From a virus (lineage: Duplodnaviria; Caudoviricetes): 30,252 bases of DNA. Shown piece after piece: positions 4,906-13,410 of the stretch (within the stretch, counting starts at the first letter, position 1; each line of letters begins with the position of its first letter). Under the pieces are notes generated by a model. The model did no database searches, was not told where the DNA came from, and worked only from the letters and a program-made list of their open reading frames with translations. A program made the position numbers and the translations under genes. Location: the IMG/VR virus record IMGVR_UViG_3300007983_000014, positions 1-30,252 of that record. One strand, written 5' to 3'.

Positions 4906-5163
4906 TTGGAGATGCTTATCTACTACGCTAAGCGGTTCATGGCCGAAAAGGGCGCTGTGGCTATTCTGGGGGTGTTTGTCTCAATCGCGATTGGGCTGGG
5001 GCTATTTGCCCAGATCAACCGTAATCTGGGCCTCAAGGACGACAACGTTATTGAATCAAATATTGAGGACATGATAGAATCAAAGTTAGGACTTTCAATA
5101 GACTTGACCCCAGACAGCCCTGATGAAGACGACTACACTCTTGAAATGTGGAGAAAAGATTAG
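4906..5163 (+). CDS. Single-pass membrane protein, holin-like
   Basis: Hydrophobic AVAILGVFVSIAIGLGLFA followed by acidic DDNVIE...IDLTPDSP; lies at the end of the late module. Start may be ATG 4912. Confidence 0.55.
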   Translation: MEMLIYYAKRFMAEKGAVAILGVFVSIAIGLGLFAQINRNLGLKDDNVIESNIEDMIESKLGLSIDLTPDSPDEDDYTLEMWRKD

Positions 5164-5210: not shown

Positions 5211-5618
5211 ATGAGCATCGGAGTAACCGGGGTCTCAATAGCCCCAGAGCTAAACCTGAGCTTTCACAAGGGATCTCTGAGTTGCTTTGATCGGCTATGC
5301 TGCTGCTCCACTCCAGACGCTAGCTCAGTCACGCTTGACGATCAGCTTTACATAGATCACAAGCTCCGAGTCATACGTTGGCAAGACAAAAAGGAAGTGT
5401 GCGGAATAGACTCGACCCATGCACGCCTCAAGTTAATCGTGGTTGACCGTCTCCATCGTGTCAGCCCTTCTCCATTCATAGATGCGCACGCCGCCTTCGA
5501 AATGTCAAGCATCGAGTGGGACGAGCCGCAGCCCATCAAGGCTTCAGACCTGAAGAGGCTAAGCAAGTGCGTTGCCAAAATCAAAGAGTCAATTTTGCAG
5601 AATTCCACTATTATTTGA
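5211..5618 (+). CDS. Hypothetical protein with a Cys cluster (SCFDRLCCC)
   Basis: 135-aa ORF with GAGG SD. Confidence 0.65.
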   Translation: MSIGVTGVSIAPELNLSFHKGSLSCFDRLCCCSTPDASSVTLDDQLYIDHKLRVIRWQDKKEVCGIDSTHARLKLIVVDRLHRVSPSPFIDAHAAFEMSSIEWDEPQPIKASDLKRLSKCVAKIKESILQNSTII

Positions 5619-10936: not shown

Positions 10937-10996
10937 AAGCTAGAAACAAGAACCCCCGCTAAGTCTCTCGGCGGGGGTTCCAATAGACACGAATAT
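10937..10996 (+). repeat. 60-bp direct repeat, copy 1 (contains a GC-rich hairpin)
   Basis: 54/60 identical to 11464-11523. Confidence 0.95.
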
Positions 10997-11014: not shown

Positions 11015-11470
11015 ATGAAAAAATACATAACAATAGTAGCTATGCTATTATCAATGAGCGTATGTGCTTTTGATGGAATTGAACTAACCGACCATGTAAT
11101 TGAAAACAATGTAATTATTGTAAAAGAACCGGTGCAAATTTATTTGGATAGAATAGCCTCTAATGCGGAGGGCTATATGTATTCTGGCTTCTGCGAAAAA
11201 CTTGGCTTCCACATTTTCGTGGACGAGGGCAGGGATGAGGTTTCGTTGGCCATTGGATACAAAAGTTATTGGATCACTCATGAGAAGAAATGGATAGATG
11301 GGGTGTCAAAAAGCCTAGACTGGAGAAATGAGTTGCCGGAAAGCGTAGAGGAGCTTGAGGATAGGACTATATTGACCTTCTTGGGTAAGAGAAAGCCAAC
11401 CATAGAGGTGTTCTTCAAAGATGGTGAGCCACACCATGCGATTATTAGCACTCGATGCAGGCCAAGCTAG
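11015..11470 (+). CDS. Secreted/periplasmic hypothetical protein (151 aa), moron-like
   Basis: GGAG SD, then MKKYITIVAMLLSMSVCA (Sec signal peptide pattern). Track start 10922 reads through the repeat hairpin. Confidence 0.75.
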   Translation: MKKYITIVAMLLSMSVCAFDGIELTDHVIENNVIIVKEPVQIYLDRIASNAEGYMYSGFCEKLGFHIFVDEGRDEVSLAIGYKSYWITHEKKWIDGVSKSLDWRNELPESVEELEDRTILTFLGKRKPTIEVFFKDGEPHHAIISTRCRPS

Positions 11471-11523
11471 AAACAAGAACCCCCGCCAAGAGACTCAGCG
11501 GGGGTTCCAATAGACATGAATAT
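11464..11523 (+). repeat. 60-bp direct repeat, copy 2
   Basis: Matches 10937-10996 and contains the TAG stop of the enclosed gene. Confidence 0.95.
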
Positions 11524-11528
11524 GTCAC
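11466..11528 (-). ncRNA. Candidate small antisense RNA 5 across repeat copy 2
   Basis: Minus-strand TTGCTT(11563-11558)-17 nt-TATCTT(11540-11535). AACCCCCGC/GCGGGGGTT stem followed by CTTGTTT. Confidence 0.55.
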
Positions 11529-11580
11529 ATCTGTAAGATATGACTTTGCCCGGACTTAAGCAAGGTGCTTAGATCAGGGC

Positions 11581-11660
11581 AAAAAGAAACCCCCAAAACG
11601 GTCCACAAATTCTTCCAAGGATTTGACCAAGATGGGGGCGCAAGTACCAAGAGGTTACTT
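11581..11660 (-). ncRNA. Candidate counter-transcribed antisense RNA of the replication-gene leader
   Basis: Minus-strand GTGAAT(11696-11691)-18 nt-TATTCT(11672-11667). Long stem closed by CCCCC/GGGGG (11590-11638), then TTTCTTTTT. Confidence 0.6.
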
Positions 11661-11758
11661 GAGCCTAGAATAGCCGATCGGCCTATTTTAATTCACGCTT
11701 AAGTAACTTCTTGATACTGTCGCTCCCACATAACAGCCCGAATGGGCAGGAGTCGATA
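11633..11758 (+). promoter_or_regulatory. Structured rep leader with mutually exclusive anti-anti-SD and anti-SD pairings
   Basis: 11633-11664 pairs with 11697-11728 (~30 bp including G-U pairs). Alternatively TGTCGCTCC (11718-11726) pairs with GGAGTCGATA (11749-11758). Confidence 0.65.
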
Positions 11759-12831
11759 TGTCACTTTCACCACTAGATCTTTTAGACAGCGGAAATTTTC
11801 AGACATACAACCGTCAAGTAGCGCGGGTTTTGGGAAGTGTGAACGCTGCTATCATGCTCGCGGAGCTAGTTAATAGATATAATTACCACAAGTCCGAGGG
11901 TGAGCTGAAATCTTTCCAAAAGTACGAAGGTGAGTGGTTTTATTATACGGTAGAAAAATGTACCGATAGAACTGTGCTGTCTCGCAAAGAGCAGGAGACA
12001 GCGATAAAAATTATTGAGAGGTTCAAGCTTTTTGAAAAACGGTCGATTGGAATACCTCCTAGGCGCCACTTTCGTCTAGACATAGAAAAAATTATTGAGT
12101 TCATCGGAGGATTAAAAGAACTCTTTATAAAGCCCGAAAAGGGCGCTATGAACGGACCGAAAGTGGCGATATGTAACGACCGAAAGTGGCGCAATAATAA
12201 AGAACCTGTATTAAAGACCCCAATCGAAGAGGACAATGTAGAGACCGTGTCCTCTCCCGTTCGGGAGGTTAATGCAAGCGCCAAGAACGAAAGCAAAAGC
12301 AACGAGTCCCCTAAGCCTACTCAGAAAATAACACCAGCCAGGCAGACAGATCCAAAGTCCAATCCAAAACCCAAATTCGTTGAACTGCTAAACCGAGACC
12401 AACGCATTTTGCACGACGAGATCATCGCTTATAAGCCTCGATGGGGCACAGCTCCAGAGTCCGACGCTGTCTGTGGATGGTTCAACTCAAAAACCACACC
12501 CTTCACGGTTGAGCAAGTTAGATCAGCGCTTGAGGTGTACAAGCAGGATGTGCTCGATGCTATCAAGCGCGATGGGCGGGTTGAATCCATGGGAGGCGCT
12601 ATTCGAGCTGTGTTGAACACGGGACGCAAGCCAAGGAACATTGACGCTGAGTTCAATCATCAGCACGCAGAGAACGCAGCGCGGATCAACCCGTTCATTG
12701 ATGCAACCAAATGCTATGCCAGGTTCAAAATCGGAGCGGGAGCAGAGGAGATAATGTACAACCAGCCAAAAGCCCAGTTTTTGCATCAATTCGAAAGGTA
12801 CAAGAGGCTCGCAGAGGATAATGAGCTTTAG
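11758..12831 (+). CDS. Phage replication initiator (N-terminal winged-helix, lambda O-like layout)
   Basis: GSVNAAIMLAEL...WFYYT....RTVLSRKEQ...IGIPPRRHFRLD N-domain, a central iteron/linker region and a separate C-terminal domain. Confidence 0.75.
   Translation: MSLSPLDLLDSGNFQTYNRQVARVLGSVNAAIMLAELVNRYNYHKSEGELKSFQKYEGEWFYYTVEKCTDRTVLSRKEQETAIKIIERFKLFEKRSIGIPPRRHFRLDIEKIIEFIGGLKELFIKPEKGAMNGPKVAICNDRKWRNNKEPVLKTPIEEDNVETVSSPVREVNASAKNESKSNESPKPTQKITPARQTDPKSNPKPKFVELLNRDQRILHDEIIAYKPRWGTAPESDAVCGWFNSKTTPFTVEQVRSALEVYKQDVLDAIKRDGRVESMGGAIRAVLNTGRKPRNIDAEFNHQHAENAARINPFIDATKCYARFKIGAGAEEIMYNQPKAQFLHQFERYKRLAEDNEL
12134..12202 (+). repeat. Three iteron-like repeats inside the replication gene (putative origin)
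   Basis: CCGAAAAGGGCG at 12134, CCGAAAGTGGCG at 12157 and 12180 (23-bp period), followed by A-rich AATAATAAAG. Confidence 0.75.
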
Positions 12832-13029: not shown

Positions 13030-13410
13030 ATGACGTCAGTCAGTACACCAAAAAATCAATATGAAGAGGCTTTCTTTGATCTCTTGGACGAAGGAGACTA
13101 CCAGACCTATAACAGATCTGTAGCACGAGCAGTTGGGAGCGTTAACGCGGCAATCATGCTTTCAGAGCTTATTAACCGGTATAAGTGCAACCAAGAACGA
13201 GGCGAGCTGGTGACGTTCGACAAAGCGCCTGGCGAATGGTTCTACTACACTCTCGAAAAGTGCGAGGAGAGAACAGTACTTTCACGCAAAGAACAAGACA
13301 GGGCGATTAAATATCTTACGGATCATGGCTTGGTGATCAAGCAGTCCTTCGGCACTCCCGCAAAGCGACACTTCCAGATCAAGTGGAGCAGCATCTGCAC
13401 CACACTTTAA
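13030..13410 (+). CDS. Truncated paralogue of the initiator N-terminal domain (126 aa)
   Basis: Shares QTYNR.VAR..GSVNAAIML.EL.NRY, GEWFYYT.EKC and RTVLSRKEQ with 11758..12831. AGGAG SD precedes ATG 13030. Confidence 0.8.
   Translation: MTSVSTPKNQYEEAFFDLLDEGDYQTYNRSVARAVGSVNAAIMLSELINRYKCNQERGELVTFDKAPGEWFYYTLEKCEERTVLSRKEQDRAIKYLTDHGLVIKQSFGTPAKRHFQIKWSSICTTL

Follow-up and report, generated by a model that had tools for sequence, protein, structure and literature searches.

A predicted two-state leader ahead of an O-like initiator gene in a tailed phage resembles antisense-controlled plasmid leaders

The antisense RNA of plasmid pSK41, RNAI, is described as triggering translational attenuation, in which it induces a stem that sequesters the Shine-Dalgarno sequence (SD) rather than causing termination (PMC5703833). 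The counter-transcribed RNA (ctRNA) of the repABC plasmid p42d of Rhizobium etli is described as acting through transcription termination (PMC3155836). There, as in pT181/pIP501 attenuation (PMC5703833), the SD stays accessible owing to a large stem-loop in the leader for as long as no antisense RNA is bound. Among phages, lambda, which integrates, carries the antisense RNA OOP just upstream of its O-type initiator gene (PMC5869508, PMC3349717). Here we analyze a tailed phage leader that works, in folding models, like pSK41 RNAI and is positioned like lambda OOP. It is a member of neither, because its initiator is not a RepA_N protein and no cII-like gene is overlapped. A literature search, mostly of freely accessible papers and their main texts, found no description of these phages, nor of a comparable switch in any phage.

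The analyzed stretch (the window), 30,252 nt long, comprises an entire virus contig (IMGVR_UViG_3300007983_000014), linear and 80% complete according to CheckV. Profile matches identified a terminase, a P22-like portal, a cro-like gene, RusA and a methylase, as well as a ParB-like protein encoded in the left early operon, and the ERF/YqaJ recombination genes are oriented leftward. One DNA read run, which may be the one that the contig came from, contained no sequence variants. The initiator is conserved in its N-terminal ~120 aa and variable towards its C-terminus, as judged from an alignment. A RepA_N identity was rejected, since the Pfam profile search returned no match and BLASTP found no similarity to pSK41 Rep (E 4.2). 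No similarity to lambda O was detectable by BLASTP either. The features of the locus are collected in Table 1.

Table 1. Positions of the leader, counter-transcript and initiator features in the window.
Feature	Coordinates	Strand	Basis or remark
Possible second small counter-transcript unit, TTGCTT-17-TATCTT, ~60 nt	11468..11563	-	7.2 bits; terminator 11508-11476
Candidate rep-leader promoter, TAGACA-17-TAAGAT	11511..11539	+	Start ~11546; 8.6 bits, consensus match only
Leader 5' hairpin	11545..11583	+	Inverted repeat and fold
Predicted antisense terminator (long interrupted hairpin and U-rich tract)	11581..11638	-	Fold
Predicted ~80-nt antisense RNA, two hairpins	11581..11660	-	Fold; start inferred from chance-level promoter
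Element a	11590..11595	+	Pairs with b in OFF fold
5' arm, containing element b (anti-anti-SD, 11633-11640)	11633..11664	+	Predicted target of antisense 5' end
Weak candidate antisense promoter, GTGAAT-18-TATTCT	11667..11696	-	-10 overlaps palindromic inner hairpin
3' arm, containing element c (anti-SD, 11718-11728)	11697..11728	+	Fold and repeat search
GCCC/GGGC hairpin between anti-SD and SD	11736..11747	+	Paired in both states
Element d, SD GGAG and start codon	11749..11760	+	Sequence
O-like replication initiator, 357 aa	11758..12831	+	PHROG 9773 'replication initiation O-like', E 4e-9
Three 13-nt iteron-like repeats, 23-bp period	12134..12192	+	Inside initiator gene

A sequence-only reading of the locus had proposed that two arms of the leader pair over ~30 bp and thereby hide an anti-SD, which could alternatively cover the SD. 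The arms (11633-11664 and 11697-11728) do form a 32-bp pair that is 81% complementary, comprising 26 Watson-Crick pairs, three G-U pairs on the plus strand, one A-C and two others. The anti-SD (11718-11726) lies within the 3' arm and is thus paired with the 5' arm in one fold. Its alternative helix with 11749-11758, which takes in the SD GGAG (11749-11752) and the A of the ATG (11758), was found as proposed, as was the GCCC/GGGC hairpin (11736-11747) bridging anti-SD and SD. Absent from that reading was element a (11590-11595), which pairs with b (11633-11640). Because of this pairing the free leader is bistable, and this fourth segment sets it apart from the pSK41 leader. The leader structure itself is real. 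The plus strand of 11581-11775 folds with a z-score of -6.48, with none of 200 shuffles as good, while the minus strand folds more weakly (z -3.49).

We consider it moderately probable, on the strength of the folding models, that the two-state leader and a ~80-nt counter-transcript bring about antisense-triggered translational attenuation of the O-like initiator. The four segments a, b, c (the anti-SD) and d (the SD) would compete with one another. During transcription, b:c would form first and leave the SD weakly structured (the ON state). The antisense 5' end would pair with the 5' arm, so that c would be released onto the SD and ATG while a captures b (the OFF state). More genome copies would mean more antisense RNA, and initiator synthesis and the firing of an iteron origin inside the gene would therefore be capped as copies rise. 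Both transcripts, the repression and the copy feedback are steps that we infer; the complementarities and the model energetics were observed.

In the fold model, the ON (b:c) and OFF (a:b plus c:d) states are 0.3 kcal/mol apart, and b:c stands at 95-97% until the SD has been transcribed. The free leader with element a transcribed is 67-87% b:c and 11-31% c:d. Blocking 11645-11661 shifts transcripts that include a to ~100% c:d, and the same block without a yields only 32%. The cost of opening the SD-to-ATG region rises from 2.8-3.2 kcal/mol in the free leader to 8.0 with the 5' arm blocked. Even unblocked, the leader is no clear-cut ON state, the SD being unpaired with a probability of 0.15-0.53. 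The fold/cofold check with the antisense RNA was run as well, and cofolding yields the OFF fold. A model leader that starts downstream of ~11665 is locked OFF. The candidate plus-strand promoter at 11511-11539 would place the 5' arm in the rep mRNA, while a chance-level plus-strand promoter starting near 11678 would leave it out; sites of at least 8 bits occur at about 1.3 per kb per strand in the window. Transcripts of the early operon may also read through into the rep leader.

Shuffled sequences allowed us to weigh whether the leader regulates anything. Its features could be insulating terminators against stray leftward transcription together with stable hairpins and a chance match to the SD, and in keeping with this the longest perfect anti-SD match in the leader is only 4 nt in a strict test and 34 of 300 shuffles have a start region as closed as that of this leader. 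We find such an absence of regulation very improbable in view of the fold z-score of -6.5, the enrichment over control leaders described below, and the small number of shuffles that equal the switch effect (7/300 with a promoter-guided block, 6/300 with a fixed block).

The antisense translational-attenuation logic is upheld in the folding models, but the counter-oriented promoter that had been placed within the hairpin is not distinguishable from chance in this genome. On a sigma-70 matrix, the best candidate (GTGAAT-18-TATTCT, -10 at 11672-11667, start ~11660) reached 6.0 bits, which equals the shuffle mean, and 146 of 300 shuffles scored at least as high. Comparable sites occur at 6.5 per kb per strand in the window. 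The antisense-strand candidates of pSK41 scored 13-15 bits with the same matrix, so that the promoter here is far weaker. For the predicted ~80-nt RNA, a terminator-like minus-strand hairpin (11638-11590) followed by a U-rich tract (11589-11581) is present, and the start depends on the chance-level promoter. Neither the terminator scans nor the analysis script called this hairpin and tract; the scans miss the hairpin because it is long and interrupted. Short palindromes, possibly operators, coincide in part with the antisense -10 candidates of the window (11666-11690) and of the leaders L013, L217 and L010.

The same data can be read as a switch that acts in cis only, the leader being bistable on its own (ON first and relaxing to OFF, or set by a protein or by temperature) and the antisense promoter having decayed or never existed. 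The 0.3 kcal/mol gap between the folds, the chance-level promoter and the stronger folding of the plus strand all agree with it. We nonetheless think it rather unlikely, as relatives retain terminators and also strong promoters on the minus strand, which reach 10-12 bits in L007, L010, L019, L021 and L024, and the minus-strand hairpin with its U-rich tract is retained in this genome.

With respect to pSK41 RNAI, the antisense-responsive leader that we favor is predicted to have in common a ~80-nt counter-transcript with two hairpins located ~100 nt ahead of the start codon, an antisense-induced SD-sequestering helix (here in folding models) and, judging from the 23-bp-spaced repeats, an origin within the initiator gene. 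It differs in belonging to a tailed phage, in its unrelated, non-RepA_N initiator and in having no Rfam or sequence match. Rfam covariance models gave no match at the gathering threshold in the window or in 12 related loci; the best sub-threshold matches lay over terminator hairpins. No DNA relatives of the leader were found by blastn in plasmid and phage records, and nhmmer over 419 loci found no homologue of it. Six matches from a pattern scan for this leader were rejected, as their flanks were unlike the leader. In repABC and pT181/pIP501 a transcription terminator is formed, whereas the OFF helix of this leader lacks a U-tract behind it on the plus strand and the locus has no repAB/cop module.

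The resemblance to lambda pO-oop-tO is one of position: a self-terminating small RNA (predicted here) opposite the region upstream of an O-type gene with iterons inside it. A counter-transcript of the OOP kind could act by duplex-triggered mRNA decay, transcriptional interference or origin silencing, with no refolding of the SD, and many relatives do possess a terminator and promoter without the modelled switch. Several differences make this improbable in our judgement, although less so than an absence of regulation. OOP overlaps the end of cII, whereas the predicted RNA overlaps no gene (the nearest upstream gene ends at 11470 and the terminator tract lies at 11581). The OOP promoter overlaps the start of O, whereas the candidate here lies within the leader; the antisense start is 11 nt from the ATG in lambda and would be ~98 nt from it here. 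No minus-strand promoter candidate whose start is closer than ~40 nt to the ATG scores above 4.2 bits. The lambda leader lacks the remote anti-SD switch in the same model, and a/b/c/d are retained across initiator families. In contrast to lambda, this phage family also shows no CI peptidase or integrase.

Translation of a leader peptide offers another way to open b:c. In the CopA/tap system of IncFII plasmids, a leader peptide is coupled to the rep start. A 13-codon ORF (11632-11673) spans the 5' arm here, and AGGA precedes its start by about 10 nt, but it is uncoupled from the rep start and the other short ORFs have no SD, which leaves peptide control with hardly any credibility. An arrangement of the IncFII kind is absent: of the ORFs with an SD, none terminates at the initiator start or runs across it.

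To place the antisense-responsive leader among its relatives, we compared 22 non-redundant initiator loci with 86 non-initiator leaders from 12 records (95 before removal of nine initiator-like ones), some of which are not real genes because the ORF caller was simple. L001, L005, L016, L018, L023, L025, L027-31, L036-37 and L061-71 were dropped as duplicates or near-duplicates, and the comparison also left out the record of the window itself (L011) and L038, which is distant. A minus-strand terminator was present in 13/22 initiator leaders and 11/86 controls (p 2e-5; this and the other p-values for relatives are optimistic because of common ancestry), and a terminator combined with a promoter of at least 7.5 bits in 8/22 and 4/86, respectively. 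The minus-strand promoter exceeded the plus-strand one in 17 of the 22 initiator leaders as against 49 of the 86 controls, with a slight excess in score (median 8.0 versus 7.1, p 0.02). An anti-SD of at least 6 nt occurred in 6/22 versus 5/86.

The added opening cost reached at least 3.5 kcal/mol, a cut-off set post hoc, in six relatives with a fixed block and four with a promoter-guided block, compared with none of the 86 controls in either case (rank tests, p 1.5e-5 and 1.4e-4). The remaining 16/22 relatives fall short of this effect. These misses do not refute the switch, because the test is insensitive: pSK41 itself, as positive control, gave +5.0 kcal/mol only with a hand-placed block, the standard blocks yielding +1.7 and -0.2. 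In L015 and L033, a short ORF lies directly upstream of the initiator, and the terminator and switch signal precede that ORF, with added costs of 3.6/3.9 and 2.7/4.3 that weaken when the window is slightly shifted; this reassignment was made post hoc and stands outside the counts. Recurrence in relatives is observed, and we regard a switch at the level of the family as probable. In the relative with the closest initiator (L012:2700-2950), a tandem AT-rich repeat array replaces the 5' arm, and the anti-SD/SD hairpin is retained.

A homologous a/b/c/d leader was found in L003, L013, L217 and L222, where it precedes three initiator families: the Rep family of the window, a Phage_rep_O protein and an HTH_36-like initiator. 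Scanning with DNA patterns derived from L003, L012 and L013, with segment a and the initiator outside the patterns and with one scan covering 56 of 64 parts of the collection, gave mostly chance matches, six and ten of those listed having an ORF downstream. Among the matches listed, two new homologous leaders emerged by DNA pattern alone, L217 (Phage_rep_O) and L137/L222 (HTH_36-like), whose genomes have capsid and portal homologues in common with the window. A further scan, which covered 12 of 64 parts, revealed no extra member among the 121 loci listed. The alignment of the four-member family retains a, b, c and d, with covariation that is not significant (130/500 shuffles). The window leader gave no nhmmer match to this family at E<=5; it has the same a/b/c/d topology with longer loops. 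A leader that is retained as the initiator behind it changes between three families speaks for a control module that is general and portable.

Truncated initiator N-termini adjoin the full initiator in the window (13030-13410) and in L015:2750-2998, L017:2675-2986 and L034:375-707, some of them belonging to other initiator families. They may be leftovers of initiator swapping or origin-binding regulators.

The 13-nt repeat within the initiator gene has five matches in the window, where 0.53 are expected; an inverted copy is located at 12063-12075 and one further perfect copy at 4943-4955. Three copies at exact 23-bp spacing are present in 16/22 relatives with differing letters (one relative has no sequence there). 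This arrangement suggests an origin inside the initiator gene, like that annotated in lambda O.

An antisense RNA ahead of the initiator does not by itself show plasmid persistence, because the integrating lambda has OOP at the same place. We examined the gene content for signs of lifestyle. A tyrosine integrase (PF00589) was found in none of 16 family records, nor in any of the nine that are at least 90% complete (one of these being the distant G012), and neither a large serine recombinase (PF07508) nor a CI-type S24 peptidase was found in 15 records. The sole HTH_3 match in the window is the cro-like gene. Absence of an integrase is also expected of lytic phages, and this gene content fits lytic phages or plasmid-like prophages. 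No partition (ParA) or multimer-resolution genes were found in this 80%-complete contig. ParA occurs in 1/15 records and a resolvase in 1/13, the resolvase-bearing relative also having transposase-like genes as judged by eye. None of 43 candidates among genome contigs contained a prophage copy, one 20-residue match having been set aside. The missing integrase and CI peptidase, together with the one ParA-bearing and the one resolvase-bearing relative, leave some room for a plasmid-like carrier state served by the replication cap, which we rate as possible but less likely than not; the cap may instead only restrain replication during infection.

The host is probably a member of the Chlamydiota, a call made because of similarity to plasmid records in two named collections. 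The small-terminase-like protein of the window has its best match in a Criblamydia plasmid (58% over 89 aa), and taxa in the ESM Atlas gave no information on the host. A phage gene group has been described on the Criblamydia sequanensis plasmid (PMC7846284). This plasmid (NZ_LK031773; L413, L414) carries head, tail, baseplate and terminase genes together with ParA, so that virion genes reside on a plasmid, and it has homologues of the small-terminase-like protein, methylase, DUF1064 protein, recombinase and ParA in common with this phage family. It differs in its virion type (baseplate, DUF2184 capsid) and its helicase-type replication genes, and contains no match to this initiator. Relative G004 encodes ParA with an 87-aa partner (L047:15563-16626); the two best plasmid matches of this ParA are Criblamydia and Protochlamydia plasmids, and G004 is a candidate phage-plasmid.

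Extrachromosomal prophages with RNA elements are described in mycobacteriophages (PMC7157519). It is conceivable, though we think it unlikely, that ~38-kb podovirus-like phages of environmental chlamydiae without integrase or CI repressor would control their persistence through an antisense-RNA switch that is portable and acts on an exchangeable initiator, remaining as a low-copy plasmid in an intracellular host until override. The mechanism is already known from plasmids. If the antisense-responsive leader operates as proposed, it would place a plasmid-type RNA brake on a lambda-type iteron replicon in phages without the usual lysogeny genes, and would offer such phages one route to limit replication or persist without integration. 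Should the hosts be environmental chlamydiae, the replicon would be a candidate for tool development in bacteria whose genetics is still little developed.

Several further features of these genomes were observed. A 60-nt direct repeat (90% identity) at 10937-10996 and 11464-11523, the only two copies in the window, brackets a 151-aa ORF (11015-11470) with a hydrophobic N-terminus, and the central GC hairpin loop is inverted between the copies; repeat and ORF together look like an inserted cassette. A short gene at 10658-10885 matches Hc1 (PF07432, histone H1-like N-terminal domain, E 1e-6) and lacks a long basic tail. It was not found in 12 related records, and a homologue search listed nothing except the protein itself, which is possibly a nucleoid modulator. 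Between the late and left-early regions, a 135-aa gene of no known family (5211-5618) has a strong plus-strand promoter candidate (11.5 bits) and five homologues at 58-67%. Finally, the terminase gene of relative G003 (L044:10110-11819) seems, by eye, to hold an intein-like insertion.
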